Shown here: piece after piece, positions 6,371 to 47,168 of the stretch | How the letters are laid out: each line of letters begins with the position of its first letter | How positions within the stretch are numbered: position 1 is the first letter of the stretch | Assembly: GCA_012798695.1 (NCBI GenBank) | Contig: JAAZMR010000079.1 | Location: forward strand, 9,733 to 73,732 | Reading direction: 5' to 3' | From: Bacillota bacterium | Lineage (GTDB): Bacteria > Bacillota > Limnochordia > DTU087 | DNA: 64,000 bases | Notes under the pieces: generated by a model | Told to the model about the DNA's origin: nothing | The model's input: only the letters and a program-made list of their open reading frames with translations | Databases searched by the model: none | Made by a program: the position numbers and the translations under genes

Positions 6371-8605
<2,235 letters not shown>

Positions 8606-8606
<1 letters not shown>

Positions 8607-8896
8607 TGGCTGGCTTGCGGTTGCGGATTGTGACACCCCACAATGAGTTGCTGGACGGTTCCGTGGAAATGGTAGTACTGCCGGGCAGTGAAGGGCAGCT
8701 GGCTGTATATCCAGGCCATATTCCCTTGGTTACCACTCTGCAGGATGGGGAGATTCAAGCCGGCAAGGGGGAAGATGAGCGGCGGTTTCGAGTGGCCGGT
8801 GGCTGGGTGAAGGTATCAAGCCAGCAAGTGATCGTCTTAGCCCGGGAAGCAGAGGCTGTTTCTGCAAGTAAAGATAGTGCAGCACTGCGATTATGA
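8606..8896 (+). CDS. atpC: F1 ATP synthase subunit epsilon
   Basis: Epsilon-like N-terminal beta-sandwich sequence, last gene of the operon. Confidence 0.85.
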
Positions 8897-8949: not shown

Positions 8950-9375
8950 GTGAAAGAGGCTAGTGCCCGGAGGATTCTAAGAAGAGCGGGACTCAGATGC
9001 ACTACCGGCCGTCTGCGGATTTTGGAGATACTGCAAAAGGCCAAAGGGCCCATGACCCACCAGGAGATTCTGGCAGCAGCGGCACCAGTTGAGCTGAATC
9101 GGGTCAGTGTTTACCGGGCCCTTGACGCTTTTCAAGCGGCTGGCATTATCCACCGAGTGGATATGGGCGATCGGGTATGGCGATTCGCCCTTTGCCTCCG
9201 CTTGGGAGAGGACCACTGTCATCCTCATTTTGCCTGCCGAGCATGTGGACGAGTAGAGTGCCTCGATTCCATCCAATTGCCCAGAGTAAAGGAAACCCAA
9301 AACGGGTATAAGATAGAACAGCAGGAAGTATACTGGAAGGGCCTATGCTCAAAATGTGCTGATCGGCCTAGCTGA
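8950..9375 (+). CDS. zur: Fur-family metalloregulator, probably Zur
   Basis: Fur-family winged-helix plus HCHPHFxCxxCG...C zinc motifs. Immediately upstream of znuACB. Confidence 0.75.
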   Translation: MKEASARRILRRAGLRCTTGRLRILEILQKAKGPMTHQEILAAAAPVELNRVSVYRALDAFQAAGIIHRVDMGDRVWRFALCLRLGEDHCHPHFACRACGRVECLDSIQLPRVKETQNGYKIEQQEVYWKGLCSKCADRPS

Positions 9376-9449: not shown

Positions 9450-10343
9450 ATGAGAAAACTACGTGCATTGTGCCAGGGAATGATCATTTTCAGTCTTATG
9501 CTGGCTGGCAGCTTAGGTGTAGGGGCGGCTGGCAAGCCGCTATCAGTTTTTGTGAGTATTCTGCCCCAGAAGTACTTTGTCGAACGCATAGCGAGGAGTA
9601 ATGTCAAGGTATCTGTCATGGTACGCCCCGGGGCAGATCCAGTAACTTATGAGCCATCGCCCCGACAGATGGCCGAACTAGCTCACGCAAAAGCATATTT
9701 CCGGATTGGCGTGCCCTTTGAAGAGGCTTGGCTAGATAGAATGCAGAAAAACCACCCCCGCCTCTTGGTAGTGGACACTCGCAAAGGCATTCCCTTGAAG
9801 GCTCTTTCAGGCCACCATCATCATTCCGGATTAGATCAACCCGTGCTACCAGAAATGGTGATGGATCCTCACATCTGGCTCAGTCCTCGCTTGGCCAAGA
9901 GGCAGGCGGAGACTATATGTAAAACCCTCATAGCTCTGGATCCAGCCCATCAAGGGGATTATCAGCGCGATTGTGCGCAGTTTCTCCAAGAACTTGATGC
10001 TGTGGATCAGGAGATTCGCTGGATTTTGAAGGATGCCCAGGGCGGTAAATTCATGGTATTTCACCCAGCTTGGGGGTATTTTGCTGATGAGTACGGGCTA
10101 GAGCAGATCCCGATCGAAGTGGAGGGGAAAGAACCAAGCGCCAAGGAATTGGCTCGGACTATTGACCTAGCTCGTCAACAAGGCATCAGACTGATCTATG
10201 TCCAGAGCCAATTTAGTACCAAACCGGCTGAAACCATAGCCAAAGCCATCGGAGGTCAGATTGTCCAGTTGGATCCATTAGCAGAGGATTATCTGACTAA
10301 CCTGTTGGCTATGGCCAAAGCCATTGCGGCAGGAGCGCGGTGA
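9450..10343 (+). CDS. znuA: zinc ABC transporter substrate-binding protein (ZnuA/TroA family) with His-rich loop
   Basis: Signal peptide, SGHHHHSGLD loop, DPHIWLSP motif. Confidence 0.8.
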   Translation: MRKLRALCQGMIIFSLMLAGSLGVGAAGKPLSVFVSILPQKYFVERIARSNVKVSVMVRPGADPVTYEPSPRQMAELAHAKAYFRIGVPFEEAWLDRMQKNHPRLLVVDTRKGIPLKALSGHHHHSGLDQPVLPEMVMDPHIWLSPRLAKRQAETICKTLIALDPAHQGDYQRDCAQFLQELDAVDQEIRWILKDAQGGKFMVFHPAWGYFADEYGLEQIPIEVEGKEPSAKELARTIDLARQQGIRLIYVQSQFSTKPAETIAKAIGGQIVQLDPLAEDYLTNLLAMAKAIAAGAR

Positions 10344-10349
10344 TAGACT

Positions 10350-11048
10350 GTGAGTAATGCCATTCAGATGACGGGAGTGTCATTTAGCTACGGAAATACT
10401 CCCACTTTAGATGCAGTAGACTTGAGAGTCGAAACGGGTGAGTTCCTTGGCCTGGTTGGTCCAAATGGGGGAGGCAAGACGACCCTGCTGAAATTGATGC
10501 TGGGATTGCTGGTCCCTGGACAGGGTAAGATTAAAGTATACGGTCAACCGCCCGAGCGGGCCCGTAAGGTCATTGGCTATGTACCACAGTTCGCTGATGT
10601 TGATCGTAGTTTCCCGATCTCAGTAATGGATGTAGTCTTGATGGGGCGTCTTGGTCTGACTGGGTTTCTGGGAATGTACACTGAGGGTGACCGGCGAATA
10701 GCACGGCTGGCGATGCAGCGGGTGGGAGTATGGGGCCTGAGACATCGACGACTGGGCAGCCTTTCTGAAGGCCAAAGACAGCGGGTGCTCATAGCCAGGG
10801 CATTGGCTGTTGAACCGAGATTAATGGTGTTGGATGAGCCCACGGCTAGTATAGATCCGACAGCAGAACAAGCGATTTCCCAGCTGCTTAGAGAACTGTA
10901 CAGATCGACGACCATTGTCATGGTTTCCCATGATCTGGAGCTGCTCAACAGCCATGCAGACCGCTTGCTCTATGTAAATCGACAGTTGCTGCCTTTCGAG
11001 GATGGCCAAATGCTGTTTACTGGCAAGTTGCGGCCTCCTCGGGATTGA
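10350..11048 (+). CDS. znuC: zinc ABC transporter ATP-binding protein
   Basis: Walker A GPNGGGKTT, LSEGQRQR signature, Walker B LVLDEPT. Confidence 0.85.
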   Translation: MSNAIQMTGVSFSYGNTPTLDAVDLRVETGEFLGLVGPNGGGKTTLLKLMLGLLVPGQGKIKVYGQPPERARKVIGYVPQFADVDRSFPISVMDVVLMGRLGLTGFLGMYTEGDRRIARLAMQRVGVWGLRHRRLGSLSEGQRQRVLIARALAVEPRLMVLDEPTASIDPTAEQAISQLLRELYRSTTIVMVSHDLELLNSHADRLLYVNRQLLPFEDGQMLFTGKLRPPRD

Positions 11049-11083
11049 GGATTGAGAGGGCCCAAATCGTGAGGTGAAGCCAC

Positions 11084-11923
11084 ATGCAGGGTTTTCTTGA
11101 GGCCCTGATGAACTATAGTTTTCTGCAGCATGCTTTGCTGGCCGGCATCCTAGCGAGTATAGCTGCAGGTTTAGCCGGTACATTTGTCGTGGTGAAACGC
11201 ATCTCGCTTATTAGTGGCGGGATCGCCCACAGCATCTTAGGTGGTATGGGTATTGCCTACTATCTTGGACTTAGTCCCACAAAAGGAGCGGTTGTCTCGG
11301 CCCTGGTTGCCGCTGTGATTATTGGACTGGTGAGCCTAAGGGCAAGACAGCATGAAGATACGGTCATCGGGGCGCTCTGGGCTATAGGGATGGCTGTAGG
11401 GGTGCTCTTTATCTCCCGAACTCCTGGCTATAATGTTGATCTAATGACATTTCTGTTTGGGAATATCTTGATGGTATCAGCCGAAGATCTAGTTCTTATC
11501 GGTGTCCTGGATGGTGTAATCATACTGGTTATAGGGCTTTTCTATAAGCAATTCCAGGCAGTTGCCTTTGATGAACAGCATGCCCGGCTGAGGGGCATGC
11601 CTGTGGAGTTTTTGTATCTTTTGCTCCTGATCCTGGTCGCCCTGACTGTAGTCATTCTTATTAAGGTTGTAGGGCTTATCTTGGTGATCGCTCTGCTGAC
11701 ACTGCCCCCGGCCATAGCCAATCACTATGCCCATAATCTTGCCCAAATGATGGCTTTTGCAGTAGCTTTGAGTATGTTCTTTAATGCCACAGGGTTGGTT
11801 GTGTCATATCAGCTAGATCTCCCTGCCGGTGCTACGATTGTCATGATCGCGGGGCTCTTCTACCTCCTTTCTATCAGCCTCCGAGGCCTTAGCTCATCCC
11901 TCTTTCGCCAGGAGTCTCAATAA
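11084..11923 (+). CDS. znuB: zinc/manganese ABC transporter permease
   Basis: ABC-3 family polytopic permease. Confidence 0.85.
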   Translation: MQGFLEALMNYSFLQHALLAGILASIAAGLAGTFVVVKRISLISGGIAHSILGGMGIAYYLGLSPTKGAVVSALVAAVIIGLVSLRARQHEDTVIGALWAIGMAVGVLFISRTPGYNVDLMTFLFGNILMVSAEDLVLIGVLDGVIILVIGLFYKQFQAVAFDEQHARLRGMPVEFLYLLLLILVALTVVILIKVVGLILVIALLTLPPAIANHYAHNLAQMMAFAVALSMFFNATGLVVSYQLDLPAGATIVMIAGLFYLLSISLRGLSSSLFRQESQ

Positions 11924-23002: not shown

Positions 23003-24064
23003 GTGTCGAGCGAGATGACGCCCAGGGAGCGATGGTTGGCAGTATTGAGGCGCGAACAGACAGATCGGGTCCCCATGGACTACTGGGCCACGCCGGAAGC
23101 AACAGAGCGGTTGATGGCCCATCTGGGTTGTACTGAAGAGGAAGAGGTGTACCGGCGCCTGCACATCGACAAGGTCGTGACTGTGGGCCCCCGTTACATA
23201 GGCCCTGCCTTACCTAAAAACGAAAACATATTTGGTGTACGTTATCGAGATGTTGATTACGGGACTGGAACTTACCAAGAATGTATCTACCATCCTTTAG
23301 CCAAATATGAGACTGTAGAAGAGATCGTGGCCGAGTACCGCTGGCCCTGCCCGGATTGGTTTGACTATTCCCACATCCCTCAAGAGGTTGAGGGTTTTGC
23401 GGATTATTATCCCATCCGGGGTGGGGGTTCTGAGCCGTTTTTGACCTATTGTCAATTAAGGGGTCAACAGCAAGCCTTGATTGACTTGATTCTATGCCCC
23501 GAGATTGTCCACTATTGCTTGGATAAACTCTTTGAGCTTTGCTATATCGACACTATGCGGATATATGAGCAGATTCCGGGGAAGGTAATGTTGACCTATG
23601 TAGCTGAGGACATGGGGACACAGGAAAATCTGCTCTTTGCACCAAGCCAGATTCGGGAGTTTTTACTGCCCCGTATGCAAAGAATGATTGATTTGGCTCA
23701 CGAGGCCGGTGCCTATGTGTTTCATCACAGTGATGGAGCAATACGGGAAATCATTCCAGATATGATTGGGCTGGGTATTGATATCCTCAATCCGATCCAA
23801 TGGCGCTGTCGGGGGATGGAACGCAAAGCTTTGAAACGGGATTTTGGGCAACACCTGATTTTCCATGGAGGAGTTGACAACCAGCATACTTTGGTGTTCG
23901 GCTCACCAGATGATGTACGTCAAGAGGTGAAAGACAATATTCGGATCTTGGGAGCAGGAGGTGGCTACATACTAGCTCCTTGCCACAATATTCAAGCGGT
24001 TAGCCCTCCGGAGAATATCGTGGCTATGTATGAGGCTGGCTATGAATATGGCCAAAGTGGTTGA
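23003..24064 (+). CDS. uroporphyrinogen-decarboxylase (URO-D) family protein, MtaA-like methyltransferase paralog 1
   Basis: URO-D fold N-terminus (RVPMDYWATPE) and GGGYILAPCHNIQ near the C-terminus. GTG start. Confidence 0.75.
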   Translation: MSSEMTPRERWLAVLRREQTDRVPMDYWATPEATERLMAHLGCTEEEEVYRRLHIDKVVTVGPRYIGPALPKNENIFGVRYRDVDYGTGTYQECIYHPLAKYETVEEIVAEYRWPCPDWFDYSHIPQEVEGFADYYPIRGGGSEPFLTYCQLRGQQQALIDLILCPEIVHYCLDKLFELCYIDTMRIYEQIPGKVMLTYVAEDMGTQENLLFAPSQIREFLLPRMQRMIDLAHEAGAYVFHHSDGAIREIIPDMIGLGIDILNPIQWRCRGMERKALKRDFGQHLIFHGGVDNQHTLVFGSPDDVRQEVKDNIRILGAGGGYILAPCHNIQAVSPPENIVAMYEAGYEYGQSG

Positions 24065-26937: not shown

Positions 26938-26980
26938 ACCCGCCGGGTAGGCCTTAAGGGCTTGTCGGCGGGTGTCTTTT
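26938..26980 (+). terminator. hairpin (ACCCGCCG ... CGGCGGGT) plus TCTTTT after GH127
   Basis: 8-bp GC stem with a long loop then a T-run. Overlaps the predicted csoR promoter. Confidence 0.4.
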
Positions 26981-27016
26981 CTAGTAAAATGGATACCGTG
27001 GATGGGTATGGTATAG
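26962..27016 (+). promoter_or_regulatory. candidate promoter TTGTCG-17-TAAAAT with downstream pseudo-palindrome ATACC-N7-GGTAT (possible CsoR operator)
   Basis: Hexamers with a 17-nt spacer. Inverted repeat 26993-27009 placed at the expected +1 region, 60 nt upstream of csoR. Confidence 0.35.
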
Positions 27017-27073
27017 TTGGATCGCTGTGGGGTGGGTGGACAGATTCAACGTATGGAGAGAGGGGTTGCCAAG

Positions 27074-27349
27074 ATGCCGCATTCCAATCCCCGTCGGAAA
27101 AAGAATCTGTTGCTGCGGTTGAGCCGGATTGAAGGCCAGATCCGGGGAATTAGCAGAATGGTCGAAGAAGAACAATACTGTGTGGATATTCTTAATCAGA
27201 TCTCAGCCGTCCGATCGGCCCTCAGTAGTGTGGGACAGATTCTGCTGGAGGGGCATATCCGGGGATGTGTCACAGATGCGATCAAAAGCGATCATGGCGA
27301 TGAGTCGATTGATGAGCTGATGCAGATCATCAAGAAATATACGCTCTAG
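27074..27349 (+). CDS. csoR: CsoR/RcnR-family metal/thiol-sensing repressor, Cys-His-Cys type
   Basis: DUF156 helical-bundle sequence. Cys in QYC and a GHIRGC H-x3-C arrangement typical of Cu-sensing CsoR. Confidence 0.8.
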   Translation: MPHSNPRRKKNLLLRLSRIEGQIRGISRMVEEEQYCVDILNQISAVRSALSSVGQILLEGHIRGCVTDAIKSDHGDESIDELMQIIKKYTL

Positions 27350-27458
27350 ACAGATGATTTCCAGGTAGATCTTGCAGTCCTAGATAGTCAGTACAACACG
27401 ACACTGGCTCTTTGGGGGTTCAAGCAGAACTGGCAAAAGCGCAGGAGGAGGGTAACCT

Positions 27459-27866
27459 ATGCAGGTGAATATATCTTGGACAGATGGGATGGAGTTTGTC
27501 GCAGATGCGGGTGGCCATTCCTGGAACATGGATGCATCGCTAGAGGCCGGCGGCAGCGACCAGGGCCCCCGGCCAACGGAGTTATTGCTTTCAGCTATTG
27601 GAGGCTGCACAGGTATTGATATAGTCAGCATATTGCAGAAGATGCAGCAGCCATTGACCGGTCTGCGAGTAGAGGTGTCGGGTGAAAGAGCTGCAGAGCA
27701 TCCCCGGCGTTTCACGCACATTACACTGCGTTATATTGTTACTGGCAAAGGATTGGCTCGGGATAGGGTGACACGAGCAGTACAGCTCTCGATCGAGAAG
27801 TATTGCTCGGTACTGCATTCGATGAACGCTGAAGTAGATTATAGTTTTGAAATCATTGAAGACTAG
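27459..27866 (+). CDS. OsmC-family protein (peroxiredoxin-like)
   Basis: OsmC fold motif GGCTGIDIVSIL with the paired-Cys arrangement. Confidence 0.8.
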   Translation: MQVNISWTDGMEFVADAGGHSWNMDASLEAGGSDQGPRPTELLLSAIGGCTGIDIVSILQKMQQPLTGLRVEVSGERAAEHPRRFTHITLRYIVTGKGLARDRVTRAVQLSIEKYCSVLHSMNAEVDYSFEIIED

Positions 27867-27872
27867 GCAAGT

Positions 27873-27909
27873 AGGAGACTCGAGCTTCGCTAGAGGCCTC
27901 GAGTCTCCT
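27873..27909. terminator. bidirectional terminator, 12-bp stem AGGAGACTCGAG / CTCGAGTCTCCT
   Basis: Perfect inverted repeat between convergent OsmC (+) and Gfo/Idh/MocA (-) genes. Confidence 0.6.
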
Positions 27910-27928
27910 GTACTATTCCTTAAGAGGG

Positions 27929-28879
27929 CTATAGGGCTACTGGTTGGCCGGTCTCGGCTGATGCTAGGATGGCCAAGCTAAGTGCCAAGGTCTTCTTTGC
28001 CTCCTCCGGATCTAGTGGGTAGGCGGTTCCGGTGCGAACAGCCTCAATGAAAAGGCGATCCTCTTCTCGATACATGTCTAGGTCTTTGGGTTGGTAGACT
28101 TCGGGTTCGGCGCCCTGCCGGTATACCATGATCGCTCCACCCTGGCCAGTACGCAGTACGCCTTTGGTGCCGACGAGACCAGACTCGAGCCAGCTGGTGG
28201 CTGAAGACCAGGAAGCCATGATCTGGCCGATACCACCTTGAGCGAATTCAAGCAGTCCCACCACATTGTCCTTAATGTCTACATCAGGCAGGGCTGTCTT
28301 GGCGAGGCCCTGGACTCTTACCACGTCTCCGACCACGTAACGCAACCAGTCCAAGTTGTGGGTAGTCTGTTCGGTGAGCATGCCTCCACCAATCGCCTGG
28401 CTCTTGAGCCAAGGGGCAGGAGGAATGGGGCTCATGCGGGTAATCCAAGCAAGCGTGATTTCTCCTATTTTACCACTGGTAACGATCTCTTTGCACATTT
28501 GTGCCCATGGCAGGAAGCGGAGACAGTAACCTATACCCAGCAGCCGTTCATTCTCTTGGGCAGTCTCGATCATCTCATCGGCTTCCTCGAGAGATAAAGC
28601 CATTGGTTTTTCACAGAAAACGTGCTTACCGGCTCTTAAAGAAGTAACAGTTATGTCTCTGTGGCTATCTGGGGGAGTACACACCCATACTGCATCCACT
28701 TGCTCGAGGGCATCATGGTAATCGGTGAAAGCTTGACATCCCACCATTTCAGCTAGTTCCTCGGCCCGCTCAGGGATAATGTCCACTGCTGCATGGATCT
28801 TGGCGCCGCCTATCTGCTGGAGCTGTTGGGTGTGACGGTTTCCGATTCCTCCACAGCCAACCATAGCGATTCGCACCAC
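27929..28879 (-). CDS. Gfo/Idh/MocA family NAD(P)-dependent oxidoreductase
   Basis: N-terminal Rossmann MVGCGGIGNRH. GTG start with AAGGAG 8 nt upstream. Confidence 0.85.
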   Translation of the reverse strand: MVRIAMVGCGGIGNRHTQQLQQIGGAKIHAAVDIIPERAEELAEMVGCQAFTDYHDALEQVDAVWVCTPPDSHRDITVTSLRAGKHVFCEKPMALSLEEADEMIETAQENERLLGIGYCLRFLPWAQMCKEIVTSGKIGEITLAWITRMSPIPPAPWLKSQAIGGGMLTEQTTHNLDWLRYVVGDVVRVQGLAKTALPDVDIKDNVVGLLEFAQGGIGQIMASWSSATSWLESGLVGTKGVLRTGQGGAIMVYRQGAEPEVYQPKDLDMYREEDRLFIEAVRTGTAYPLDPEEAKKTLALSLAILASAETGQPVAL

Positions 28880-29028
28880 AATTACCACTCCTTGAATAAA
28901 TGATGTAATCAAATGCCATGGTATGAATTCCTGCTATTGGCGAAGTATCCTGCTCTTGATTAGTCAGGCCTGTACAATAACCCGGTATTCGGGAAAGGGA
29001 TACGGGCAGTATAAGTGGAACCTTCCAT

Positions 29029-32971: not shown

Positions 32972-34012
32972 GTGACAGCTTTAGAGCGAGTCAGCAAAAC
33001 TCTGCGATTAGAAGAGCCCGATCGAGTACCAGTATATCCAATACTTAGCGGTGTCACCCGTCACCTAGTGAATGCGAGTTATCGGGAGTGGGCCACTAAC
33101 GCGGAAATTTGTGCCGCAGCTTACATCAAAGCGGCTGAACAGTATCGGCTGGATGTCATCTGCACTTTGACAGATCTATCAGTGGAGGCCGCTGATTTTG
33201 GTGCCCAAATAGTTTACCCGGAAAATGAGGCAGCCCACCCTGAATTCGGCACACGGCGTCTTGCTGCTGTAGAGGACTACCGCACCGTGCAACCCGTAGA
33301 TCCACATACGGGCCCTCGGATGAGCGAGCATATCAAGCTGTGCCAGAGGTTGGTAGAAGCTAAGGGGAAGGAAATACCGATAGTTGCCTTTACCTTTGGC
33401 CCGTTAGGAATCACCAGCATGCTAAGAGGTCAGGAAGAGTTCTTTATGGATCTGATCTTGGAACCAGAGGCGGTCAAGTATGCTATTGCAGCAGTAACGG
33501 AAACCTTGATGGACTATTATGATGCCTTGATGGATACAGGGGTGCATGCTATCATGATGGATACCCTATTTGCCTCTGAATCGATTATGAGCAAATCTAT
33601 GTGGCTGGAGTTTGAAGGGGAATATGTAAGACGTTTGGCAGAGCGAGTCCACGAGCGGGGTTGCATGATGATGGTTCACAATTGCGGTAATGGCATCTAT
33701 TTTGATGCCCAGATTGAGACTATGCAACCAGAAGCGATTTCCTTTCTCCATCTTCCAGACGATGTGACAACTCCGGCTGAGTTGAAAAAGAAGTATGGGC
33801 ACCAGACTACCCTCATCGGACATGTTGATCCTACCTGGATCGTTCAGGCCAGCGAAGATGAGGTAAGAGATGAGTGCAAAAAGCAAATCGATCTATATAA
33901 ACAGGGTGGCGGATACATCCTGGCCACGGGATGTGAGTACCCCGCCAATGCTGATCTGCGTAATGCAGAGGTGATGGTGGAAACCGCCGAGACCTATGGG
34001 CGATATGCGTGA
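32972..34012 (+). CDS. URO-D family methyltransferase, MtaA/CmuA-like (Zn-binding H-x-C-G type), paralog 2
   Basis: MMVHNCGNG (H-x-C-G) and C-terminal GGGYILATGCE Cys, characteristic of corrinoid:substrate methyltransferases. GTG start after AGGAGG. Confidence 0.75.
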   Translation: MTALERVSKTLRLEEPDRVPVYPILSGVTRHLVNASYREWATNAEICAAAYIKAAEQYRLDVICTLTDLSVEAADFGAQIVYPENEAAHPEFGTRRLAAVEDYRTVQPVDPHTGPRMSEHIKLCQRLVEAKGKEIPIVAFTFGPLGITSMLRGQEEFFMDLILEPEAVKYAIAAVTETLMDYYDALMDTGVHAIMMDTLFASESIMSKSMWLEFEGEYVRRLAERVHERGCMMMVHNCGNGIYFDAQIETMQPEAISFLHLPDDVTTPAELKKKYGHQTTLIGHVDPTWIVQASEDEVRDECKKQIDLYKQGGGYILATGCEYPANADLRNAEVMVETAETYGRYA

Positions 34013-45989: not shown

Positions 45990-46103
45990 TGGCCGGCAAG
46001 TTTTCTATAGATGGCATGTCAAACCTACTTATGGGTTTTCACAATGGCTTCTCAGAAGAAAGGGGGTGGGGCGCACTGCTCCCTGTTGCTGGGTGATAGT
46101 AGT

Positions 46104-47168
46104 GTGCTCAAATTAGTGAGAGTTGTAGCAATTCACGGTCCCGGAGATATTCGTATTGACAATGTAGAGACACCTAATCCAGGGTCTAATGAAGTAATTG
46201 TTAGGGTCAAGGCCTGTGGAATCTGTGGTTCTGATCTGCCTCGGGCTTTTGGTGATGGGGCCCATTTTTACCCGGTTGTTGTCGGCCACGAGGCCGCTGG
46301 AGAGGTTGCGGTTATCGGCAGTCAGGTCCAGCATCTGCACGTGGGGGATCGGGTAGTTGTGGCACCATTGGTTCCGTGCATGAGCTGTCAGTTTTGCCAG
46401 CAGGGGGTATACTCCCTTTGCCGGTCATATAGTTTTATCGGATCCCGTCAACAAGGATGCATGGCAGAATATGTGCGTGTTCCCAGTAGGTGTCTTGTGA
46501 AAATGCCTCCAGAGCTTTCCTATGAGGAAGCGGCTATGGTAGAACCGGCTACCGTTTCTTTGCATGTCCTACTGCGGGTAGGGGTGGCTGGTTCCCGGGT
46601 GGTAGTTCTCGGTACAGGCACCATTGGGCTCTTAGCGGTGCAATGGGCTCGATTTCTGGGAGCATCTCAAGTCATAGCAGTGGATATTGATGACTTCAAA
46701 TTGGAGATTGCCACTAAGATAGGTGCTGATGTAGCAATTAATAGCGCGAGAGAGCCTGATCAAGGCTTGGCTCAGTTGAGAGAGGCTACTGATGGGCATC
46801 TGGCTGACATAGTGGTAGAGACCGCCGGCAACCCGGCAACCCAGGTACAGGCGGTTGAGGTTGCCGCCAGCAATGGTCATGTACTTTATGTTGGTACAGC
46901 CGATAAAGATGTTCATTTCCCTGCTCCGACCTTTGAAATGATTCTGCGTAAGGAGCTCAACATATTGGGATCATGGATGTCTTACTCACCACCTTTTCCT
47001 GGGAAAGAATGGAGCATGGCTATCTCGGCTTTGGCGCAGGGTAGGATTAGGGTTGAGGATCTAATTACTCATCGGTTTGAGCTCGATCATGCAAACCTGG
47101 CCCTAGAGACGATGCGTGATGGGATTAATACTGTGAAAGTCATGCTGCTTTGCGCAAAAGAAAGCTAG
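46104..47168 (+). CDS. Zn-dependent medium-chain dehydrogenase, sorbitol/L-iditol dehydrogenase-like
   Basis: CGICGSD structural Zn site, GHEAAG catalytic Zn site, GxGxxG. Start codon uncertain (GTG 46104). Confidence 0.8.
   Translation: MLKLVRVVAIHGPGDIRIDNVETPNPGSNEVIVRVKACGICGSDLPRAFGDGAHFYPVVVGHEAAGEVAVIGSQVQHLHVGDRVVVAPLVPCMSCQFCQQGVYSLCRSYSFIGSRQQGCMAEYVRVPSRCLVKMPPELSYEEAAMVEPATVSLHVLLRVGVAGSRVVVLGTGTIGLLAVQWARFLGASQVIAVDIDDFKLEIATKIGADVAINSAREPDQGLAQLREATDGHLADIVVETAGNPATQVQAVEVAASNGHVLYVGTADKDVHFPAPTFEMILRKELNILGSWMSYSPPFPGKEWSMAISALAQGRIRVEDLITHRFELDHANLALETMRDGINTVKVMLLCAKES

Follow-up and report, generated by a model that had tools for sequence, protein, structure and literature searches.

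A Cu(I)-type CsoR repressor adjoins a YhfA-type OsmC-like gene in uncultured Bacillota: a candidate copper-responsive operon

The window, meaning the whole 64-kb stretch of DNA that was analysed, carries a two-gene unit on the + strand in which csoR is followed by a YhfA-type gene of the OsmC family (Table 1). Around csoR, the window has GH127, OsmC-like, GFO/IDH/MocA, and aldose epimerase genes. One clade of uncultured Bacillota from anaerobic digesters conserves the csoR-osmC pair; at each of its loci, the two genes adjoin on one strand, 24-109 nt apart. The flanks of the clade loci are rearranged, and URO-D, GFO/IDH/MocA, and Wzy neighbours come and go. No paper that pairs CsoR with OsmC in the relevant sense was found in the literature search.

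Table 1. Features of the csoR-osmC unit (positions in the window)
Feature	Position	Strand	Details
-35 hexamer, csoR promoter	26962..26967	+	TTGTCG; consensus scan
-10 hexamer, csoR promoter	26985..26990	+	TAAAAT; 17-nt spacer; consensus scan
Alternative overlapping promoter candidate	26990..27017	+	TGGATA-16-TGgTATAGT (extended -10); promoter scan
Predicted operator	26993..27009		ATACCgtggatgGGTAT; ATACC-gtggatg-GGTAT; core TAC-N9-GTA 26994-27008; G-tract in 3' half
csoR ribosome-binding site	27055..27065	+	GGAGAGAGGGG; read from sequence
csoR	27074..27349	+	91 aa; ATG 27074, stop 27347-27349; PF02583
Tyr35 of CsoR	27176-27178	+
Cys36 of CsoR	27179-27181	+	QYC
His61 of CsoR	27254-27256	+	GHIRGC
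Cys65 of CsoR	27266-27268	+	GHIRGC
Glu81 of CsoR	27314-27316	+
csoR-osmC spacer	27350..27458	+	109 nt
osmC ribosome-binding site	27443-27452	+	AGGAGGAGGG; within csoR-osmC spacer
YhfA-subfamily OsmC-like gene	27459..27866	+	135 aa; PF02566
Cys50 of OsmC-like protein	27606-27608	+	GGCTG
Cys116 of OsmC-like protein	27804-27806	+	EKYCSV
Hairpin	27872..27910		between convergent osmC (+) and GFO/IDH/MocA oxidoreductase gene (27929-28912, -); fold and shuffles

The csoR product is a member of PF02583 (DUF156; E=2e-33, 115 bits against a cutoff of 22.8), and its 91 aa are also the length of most csoR homologues. Its ribosome-binding site is kept in relatives as GGAGAAAGGGG. Residues 15-18 form the DNA-binding motif RLSR, which conforms to the RLxR motif described for DNA binding (PMC3902906). 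The initial annotation had read a Cys-His-Cys ligand set in this gene; Cys36, His61, and Cys65 are indeed present, within the full Cu(I)-CsoR signature Y35-C36-H61-C65-E81 (YCHCE). In a column check of 116 sequences (M. tuberculosis numbering), Y-C-H-C-E is common to the window protein, all clade members, and all 77 nearest GTDB relatives outside the clade. The ligand residues align with those of PDB entries 4M1P, 4ADZ, and 2HH7. Among solved structures, the Cu(I)-CsoR of G. thermodenitrificans (4M1P, E=1e-23) matches best, ahead of the CsoR proteins of S. lividans and M. tuberculosis, and FrmR and CstR come last. The combination of Cys-His-Cys and Glu is strong, not absolute, evidence for copper because it is also found in the nickel sensor InrS, whose signature is P-C-H-C-E.

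The region upstream of csoR contains a promoter and a predicted operator. The promoter TTGTCG-17-TAAAAT, proposed from the outset, was recovered with 9 of 12 matches in the promoter scan (26962-26990) and is conserved in relatives with the 17-nt spacing. Its -35 hexamer is kept as TTGTCG or TTGTCC in clade loci L001 and L007. The -10 hexamer at the same place in relatives is TAGAAT, TACAAT, or TAACCT and directly abuts the operator, which in the window is separated from the -10 by a 2-bp GG insertion. An alternative promoter candidate overlaps this region; its TATAGT or TATGGT is kept in relatives, and the operator would fill its -35/-10 spacer.

The inverted repeat at 26993-27009 had been likened to CsoR operators, and the likeness is confirmed by the operator rule, by conservation in the clade, and by occurrence in relatives. 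The repeat conforms to the type-2 CsoR operator rule, 5'-TAC-N9-GTA-3' (PMC3902906). It is the sole invariant block upstream of csoR in seven distinct clade loci, where the surrounding non-coding DNA has diverged, and takes the form ATAC(C/T)-N2-GG-N2-GGGTAT. Each clade locus has one operator. The exact ATACC-N7-GGTAT is found once in the window, where by arithmetic roughly 0.06 copies are expected by chance; with one mismatch, there are 5 matches against 1.6 expected. The bare TAC-N9-GTA core is found 11 times in the window, near the ~16 expected by arithmetic. The only other intergenic core, at 28973, was considered as a second operator and is treated as a chance match because its palindrome stops at the core and it is absent from L007.

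The 77 nearest csoR relatives in GTDB served as the comparison set outside the clade. The same operator motif lies upstream of csoR in 66 of the 77, against 0.07 expected per region, and in 46 the csoR/cop operon is preceded by a site of exactly the ATACC-N7-GGTAT format. CopA or CopZ is encoded within 3.5 kb in 61 of these relatives. The remaining 16 are orphans, with an operator upstream and no cop gene nearby. None of the 77 has osmC next to csoR.

The OsmC-like product belongs to PF02566 (OsmC; E=1.6e-22), and its best PDB matches are E. coli YhfA (1ML8, E=8e-28) and T. maritima TM0919 (1VLA, E=6e-27). NCBIfam PRK10738 (YhfA) aligns end to end at 112.6 bits against a cutoff of 138, so YhfA is the closest subfamily, below equivalog level. 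Cys50 and Cys116, which correspond to the peroxidatic/resolving pair of the Ohr/OsmC family, are invariant in the clade, and an H-x3-M-D motif is conserved. Residues 24-30 (MDASLEA), the presumed place of the Arg strand, contain no Arg or Lys. The YhfA subfamily is reported to be without the catalytic Arg and Glu of Ohr/OsmC (PMC8945050). The gene had been described as thiol peroxidase-like and as a peroxiredoxin partner of csoR. Membership of the OsmC family stands, but the first label is overstated because the best matches are 1ML8 and 1VLA, and the second goes too far for a subfamily whose biochemistry is uncharacterised (PMC8945050, PMC4069020) and in which peroxidase activity has never been demonstrated. 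In D. radiodurans, yhfA expression rises on Cd exposure (PMC8945050), which is physiologically in keeping with a copper-responsive operon. As a counter-point to copper, the OsmC/YhfA family is otherwise tied to thiol and redox stress.

YhfA-like genes outside the clade are mostly found without a regulator of this kind, and 72 of 78 such loci have no CsoR-family neighbour. Loci that do have one include L014/L015, L103/L104, and L112. Their regulators are His-less and CstR-like, with the signatures S-C-Y-C-R and D-C-G-C-K, and are without Tyr35, His61, and Glu81; the signature of SpCstR is D-C-N-C-K. In a neighbour-joining (NJ) tree of ~80 columns, which carries no support values and is read for coarse grouping only, these regulators group with CstR, apart from the window clade. 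Their operons add Trx-like or cysteine desulfurase/MnmA genes. Judged from these sequences, the pairing in L014/L015, L103/L104, and L112 appears to be of independent origin. Locus L114, where 1.3 kb separates copZ-csoR from a YhfA-like gene, was considered as a missing link and rejected. There, the OsmC gene belongs to a divergent unit, in which it follows an MFS gene, and the operator is of another, G-tract type with no TAC-N9-GTA.

The spacer between csoR and osmC is consistent with a single transcript. The consensus scan of its + strand gave neither a terminator nor a promoter, its fold is unremarkable (z = -0.40), and it contains no TAC-N9-GTA. In Rfam, neither the leader nor the spacer matched a riboswitch or sRNA above noise. 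The adjoining gene does begin at 27459, as annotated initially; the distance given as 110 nt is counted here as 109 nt, the longest spacer in the clade. Relatives have 24-67 nt, with 24-32 nt in L007 and L010.

A hairpin follows osmC. It has a perfect 12-bp stem, extended internally, and on the + strand a dG of -32.4 kcal/mol (z = -3.45), with none of 200 shuffles as stable; the - strand values are -25.9 and z = -2.61. L007 and L010 also have a hairpin after osmC, at the same position and with different sequences. Of the bidirectional terminator first proposed, the stem and a strong hairpin are confirmed, but the consensus terminator scan made no call. The hairpin is probably the end of both convergent transcripts, and the word terminator is used here in a putative sense because neither strand has a U-run.

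The first reading of the locus had noted no copA or copZ nearby, and this extends to the whole window. Pfam searches of 36 window ORFs yielded no copper genes, and a motif search over all 64 kb (-27 to +37 kb) yielded no P1B-ATPase or CopZ motif in a plausible gene. The sole motif-search match, MSCQFC, was rejected as CopZ, as it sits inside a zinc-type alcohol dehydrogenase (46011-47168). No copA, copZ, or other copper-handling gene is present in any clade locus. Because the window and the clade loci have no copper-handling gene, the copper role is argued from the sequence of the regulator.

We modestly favour, at slightly better than even, an operon of csoR and yhfA that responds to Cu(I) and is autoregulated. 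By analogy with studied CsoR proteins, apo-CsoR would bind the single TAC-N9-GTA operator as a tetramer, probably with two tetramers per site. The operator abuts the -10 and would cover the transcription start, so that RNA polymerase would be blocked. Were the alternative promoter used, the operator would lie in the -35/-10 spacer, and RNA polymerase would likewise be blocked. Cu(I), the presumed inducer, would be bound by Cys36, His61, and Cys65' and would release the repressor through a relay via the Tyr35/Glu81 second shell. We infer that csoR and osmC are co-transcribed, in which case release would allow two proteins to be made, the repressor and the YhfA-like protein with its two cysteines. 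Strong thiol-reactive stress would probably also derepress the operon, as in other Cu-CsoRs. The YhfA-like protein would provide thiol-based protection under copper or thiophilic stress, and if cop genes with this type of operator exist elsewhere in the genome, they are probably under the same repressor.

The initial annotation took the unusual partner as a sign of a redox-, persulfide-, or aldehyde-responsive, CstR-like circuit. A related alternative, which we consider unlikely, is a regulator that senses thiol/redox signals (persulfide, peroxide, or electrophile) while retaining its His, and that controls a thiol-redox protein. In its favour, the target has two cysteines and belongs to the OsmC family, cop genes are absent from the vicinity, and in L014/L015, L103/L104, and L112 YhfA-like genes share operons with Trx-like genes and with dithiol regulators of the CsoR family. 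Cu-CsoR regulons are derepressed in vivo by allicin, polysulfanes, and HOCl (PMC6943732). The sensor residues leave a non-copper reading unsupported: the clade conserves the complete Cu(I) set, the best structure is a Cu(I) sensor, and the 61 cop-linked relatives have the same signature. A CstR-like circuit is disfavoured by the YhfA-adjacent regulators elsewhere, which are the ones that have lost His61, Tyr35, and Glu81 and that the NJ tree places with CstR, away from the clade. CsoR also has this dithiol pair and yet, in cells, is insensitive to reactive sulfur species (PMC8643695). Neither sulfurtransferase nor CoA-persulfide reductase genes are present at the window locus.

Also improbable is an orphan role for csoR, as an autoregulated copper sensor with copA/copZ targets elsewhere, with osmC a mere neighbour that has its own expression. 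The 16 orphan relatives are a precedent, the 109-nt spacer of the window speaks for it, and the OsmC homologue is widespread as a stand-alone gene, as the 72 loci without a CsoR-family neighbour indicate. Against this, the two genes stay adjacent and in the same orientation at every clade locus even though the flanks are rearranged, spacers shrink to 24-32 nt in L007 and L010, the window spacer has no promoter or terminator signal, and the hairpin follows osmC, not csoR. A sensor of another metal (Ni/Co, InrS/RcnR-like) or of formaldehyde (FrmR-like) is very improbable. The 91 aa of the window CsoR is an FrmR/RcnR-like length, and both NCBIfam models align end to end, but at scores far below their cutoffs (FrmR, 61.7 bits against 133; RcnR, 47.3 bits against 138). 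The window CsoR begins with MPHS, as does Salmonella FrmR. However, residues 2 (P/A/S/V/L) and 3 (H/Q/S), on which FrmR and RcnR depend, are variable in the clade, which also argues against an aldehyde sensor, and His3 of the window protein is not a conserved N-terminal "W" ligand. Position Z is Cys65, compared with Thr or Glu in FrmR and His in RcnR. The window protein has IEGQ where nickel sensors have IEGH, and no rcnA, nrsD, or frmA is found near csoR.

In the copper-responsive operon favoured here, the regulator and the operator are of a known kind, and the new element is the YhfA-type cargo. A bolder and rather unlikely reading is that the YhfA branch protects against thiophilic stress (such as Cu(I) or persulfide/polysulfide) and has been captured independently by CsoR-family repressors at least two times. 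The two captures would differ in the sensor, which is of the Cu(I)-type C-H-C kind in the clade and a CstR-like dithiol protein with Trx-like genes elsewhere. On that reading, the clade would give copper-inducible access to the YhfA family, whose structures were solved without a function, and the cargo could be a Cu(I)-buffering or a Cu-thiolate/persulfide-resolving protein that replaces CopZ/CopA beside the sensor. The clade pairing and the CstR-like/YhfA-like operons elsewhere together provide a concrete functional lead for the subfamily. The residue signature is a safer predictor of the signal of a CsoR-family protein than its gene neighbourhood. Should the clade be without copA altogether, its cytoplasmic response to copper would depend mainly on the csoR-osmC locus, and the locus would gain in interest.

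The closest known systems are the Firmicutes Cu(I)-CsoR proteins of B. subtilis and G. thermodenitrificans (4M1P; SSN cluster 1, PMC8643695), which share the fold family, the x-C-H-C ligands, the Tyr/Glu second shell, and RLxR with the window protein. They also share the ATACC-N7-GGTAT / TAC-N9-GTA operator over the promoter, and autoregulation is suggested by its position. Unlike in these systems, the partner in the window is a YhfA-type OsmC-like gene and not copZ/copA. RicR of M. tuberculosis is a Cu-type CsoR paralogue that controls non-exporter targets (metallothionein, multicopper oxidase) through a TACC-type palindrome. RicR (NF052430) is the best NCBIfam match of the window CsoR, yet a score of 84.6 bits against a cutoff of 175 indicates that it is not an orthologue. 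To our knowledge, the RicR targets are scattered single genes, and none belongs to the OsmC family.

CstR of S. aureus, E. faecalis, and S. pneumoniae (7MQ1) is of the same family and has targets in thiol/sulfur chemistry. The S. mitis cst operator, ATACC-N7-GGTAT, has nearly the format of the window operator (PMC8643695). CstRs have x-C-x-C without the His, Tyr, and Glu and rank among the weakest PDB matches of the window CsoR, which has His61. In L014/L015, L103/L104, and L112, the same two families stand side by side on one strand, but with other sensor residues (S-C-Y-C, D-C-G-C) and from another family branch. FrmR uses a Pro2 and Cys35 cross-link and a non-Cys Z, whereas the window clade has Pro2 in some members and Cys65 at Z. 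RcnR and InrS have H-C-H-H or H-C-H-C with His3 or the IEGH His; in the window clade, His3 is unconserved and Gln is at the IEGH place. On the cargo side, E. coli YhfA and T. maritima TM0919 share both family cysteines and H-x3-M-D with the window OsmC-like protein.

The regulator encoded by csoR is a metal-sensitive transcriptional repressor (PF02583, E=2e-33). Its homologues are mostly 91 aa long with N-termini that line up with the window ATG; some gene callers give upstream-extended forms of 98-113 aa. The top solved-structure match is the Geobacillus thermodenitrificans Cu(I) sensor CsoR (GtCsoR; 4M1P, E=1e-23), followed by S. lividans CsoR (SlCsoR), M. tuberculosis CsoR (MtCsoR), InrS, Thermus CsoR, FrmR, and CstR structures. 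The top NCBIfam models are RicR, FrmR, and RcnR, each far under its cutoff.

The five Cu(I)-sensing positions, Tyr35, Cys36, His61, Cys65, and Glu81 in M. tuberculosis numbering (coincidentally identical to that of the window protein), were read from a profile alignment of 116 family members. Y-C-H-C-E is found in the window protein, all members of its clade of close csoR-osmC orthologues, all 77 of the nearest relatives from GTDB genomes, GtCsoR, and MtCsoR. SlCsoR reads Y-C-H-C, the fragment used stopping short of Glu81, while InrS has P-C-H-C-E and SpCstR has D-C-N-C-K. The His of IEGH, an extra Ni ligand, is replaced by Gln. The N-terminus, MPHS, resembles FrmR and RcnR; residues 2 (P/A/S/V/L) and 3 (H/Q/S) vary across the clade, so the clade conserves neither FrmR Pro2 nor RcnR His3. 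The protein has, as RLSR, the RLxR motif on which DNA binding by S. lividans CsoR depends (PMC3902906). The signature is strong evidence for a Cu(I)-type sensor but not proof, as the C-H-C-E of InrS serves another metal when other features differ. The initial annotation's C-H-C CsoR-type repressor is thus borne out, and its proposal of a redox, persulfide, or aldehyde sensor is unsupported by these Cu(I)-type residues.

Features of the csoR-osmC locus (window coordinates)
Feature	Position	Strand	Description
Operator	26993-27009		ATACCgtggatgGGTAT; sole exact ATACC-N7-GGTAT within 64 kb
csoR	27074 (ATG)-27349 (stop)	+	91-aa ORF; ribosome-binding site GGAGAGAGGGG
csoR-osmC spacer	27350-27458	+	109 nt, longest, versus 24-67 nt in orthologues
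osmC-family gene	27459-27866	+	135 aa, PF02566; strong ribosome-binding site AGGAGGAGGG
Hairpin between convergent genes	27872-27910		12-bp perfect stem, dG -32.4 kcal/mol
GFO/IDH/MocA oxidoreductase gene	27929-28912	-	next after osmC, convergent

As first proposed, the gene following csoR is of the OsmC family. No copper gene, copA and copZ included, occurs in the 64-kb window or the clade loci. The clade is tight: its regulators form 17 clusters sharing 75-100% identity, and the next sequences are at 68% or less. All come from uncultured Bacillota MAGs or contigs, and the recorded sources are anaerobic digesters or bioreactors. An OsmC-like gene lies 3' of csoR on the same strand in every sufficiently long clade locus. 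The flanks vary: URO-D occurs upstream in some loci only, as do GFO/IDH/MocA and Wzy downstream.

Co-transcription of csoR and osmC is likely, because the spacer holds no terminator-like fold (z = -0.40), promoter hit, operator, or Rfam match. The hairpin after osmC folds better than expected (z = -3.45; 0/200 shuffles fold equally well), and the clade loci L007 and L010 have a hairpin of different sequence at the same position, which supports a transcript end after osmC. Of the closing terminator originally described, the 12-bp stem is present; lacking a U-run, the hairpin received no terminator call in the consensus scan.

The locus lies between two genes of the URO-D (uroporphyrinogen decarboxylase-like) family (23003-24064 and 32972-34012), which probably encode methyltransferase-type paralogues and not haem enzymes; only some orthologous loci have the upstream one. 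A ZnuA-type metal-binding lipoprotein gene (9450-10343), 17 kb from csoR, is the sole metal-homeostasis gene seen in the window, the following two ORFs (10350-11923) lying outside the scan. No CsoR-type operator lies 5' of it; a 1-mismatch hit (9293-9309) falls inside an ORF (8950-9375).

The inverted repeat upstream of csoR, initially likened to known CsoR operators, fits the 5'-TAC-N9-GTA-3' rule, shared by type-2 CsoR operators and essential for binding by S. lividans CsoR (PMC3902906). Across seven distinct upstream regions of orthologues, ATAC(C/T)-N2-GG-N2-GGGTAT-N-GT is an invariant block; otherwise only the ribosome-binding site and start codon are invariant, and the surrounding DNA aligns poorly. 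TAC-N9-GTA also lies 5' of csoR or a cop operon in 66/77 nearest non-clade relatives, 46 of which have the full ATACC-N7-GGTAT, against a background expectation of 0.07 per region in the same loci. Another TAC-N9-GTA core, GTACAATAACCCGGTAT (28973-28987), in the divergent GFO/IDH/MocA-aldose-1-epimerase intergenic region, is probably due to chance; its arms are non-complementary past the core, and the site is missing from L007.

The consensus scan recovered the proposed promoter, TTGTCG-17-TAAAAT, which is conserved in relatives. There the operator immediately follows the -10 hexamer, whereas in the window a 2-bp GG insertion (26991-26992) separates the two and the leader is longer than in the orthologues. 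With a second candidate, TGGATA-16-TGgTATAGT, the operator would fall within the spacer.

Rarity of the pairing was assessed from both sides. Among the 77 non-clade relatives of the regulator (46-60% identity), 61 have CopA and/or CopZ within 3.5 kb, 16 are Y-C-H-C-E orphans with no cop gene nearby, and none adjoins an OsmC gene. Orphan csoRs occur in Bacillaceae (L056, L062, L070, L071, L073, L074, and L093), several with Cys/His-rich N-terminal extensions, e.g., CEDQCCSSGRKSHHS. In B. methanolicus PB1, two csoR copies lie 8 kb apart (L079:536-904 and 8505-8843), and only one is accompanied by copZA.

A CsoR-family ORF is present in 6 of 78 non-clade YhfA-like loci from metagenomes, and three of the six are not true pairs. 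In L119 and L135 the link is simply a neighbouring CopA gene. In L114:2048-6281, a copZ-csoR unit is divergent from a string of MFS, YhfA-like OsmC, thiolase, and DsbA-like genes; its operator is of the M. tuberculosis-like G-tract type (CCACCCCACGGGGGGTGGGG), with no TAC-N9-GTA site in that region. The true pairs are L103:3297-5365 (also L104), encoding Trx-like, OsmC, OsmC, and a D-C-G-C-type regulator, and L112:160-2198, encoding a Trx-like::OsmC fusion (one 388-aa protein), a D-C-G-C regulator, and DUF302. These operons, joining Trx/Grx-like and OsmC-like proteins to a D-C-G-C regulator, look like an undescribed thiol-redox module. Recovered from the regulator side, L014:1-2988 (also L015) has an S-C-Y-C regulator directly upstream of YhfA-like OsmC, cysteine desulfurase, and mnmA, and a canonical Y-C-H-C-E csoR-copA-copZ lies 4 kb away on the same contig (L014:5001-7878). 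The regulators of all these pairs are His-less and, in a rough NJ tree, group with SpCstR, apart from the window clade. Judged by residues and grouping, the CsoR family and YhfA-like OsmC proteins have come together on at least two occasions, and the sensor chemistry differs between them; the copper-type case is the window clade. A literature search found no paper mentioning a CsoR-OsmC pairing.

The top matches of the osmC product are E. coli YhfA (1ML8, E=8e-28), T. maritima TM0919 (1VLA), and Aquifex Aq_1549. It aligns end to end with the NCBIfam YhfA equivalog model (112.6 versus a cutoff of 138), and both family cysteines are invariant. The YhfA subfamily is described as keeping the two cysteines, missing the Arg and Glu of Ohr/OsmC active sites, and being uninvestigated in biochemistry and physiology (PMC8945050); in a family of peroxidases it is the exception (PMC4069020). 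The original peroxiredoxin label is therefore premature. Cadmium increases yhfA expression in D. radiodurans (PMC8945050), which is a relevant hint.

In the proposed mechanism, apo-CsoR would repress csoR-yhfA by binding its single operator, at the -10/+1 region, and occluding RNA polymerase under either promoter reading. Cu(I) binding at Cys36/His61/Cys65' would release the repressor and raise both products, giving negative autoregulation. We infer Cu(I) as the inducer, csoR-yhfA co-transcription, and YhfA-like protein function. Allicin, polysulfanes, and HOCl are strong inducers of the Cu-type CsoR regulons in B. subtilis and S. aureus (PMC6943732), so by analogy the operon probably also responds to severe thiol stress, which would fit its thiol-protein cargo.

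The operator has the general cop format; a cop operon elsewhere in the clade genomes with a site of this kind would be part of one regulon with csoR-yhfA. Absence of cop genes from these genomes, or Cu(I) or persulfide handling by the YhfA-like protein, would make the locus more interesting. As a variation on a known system, a small uncultured clade conserves a Cu-type CsoR that has a YhfA-like protein as its cargo.
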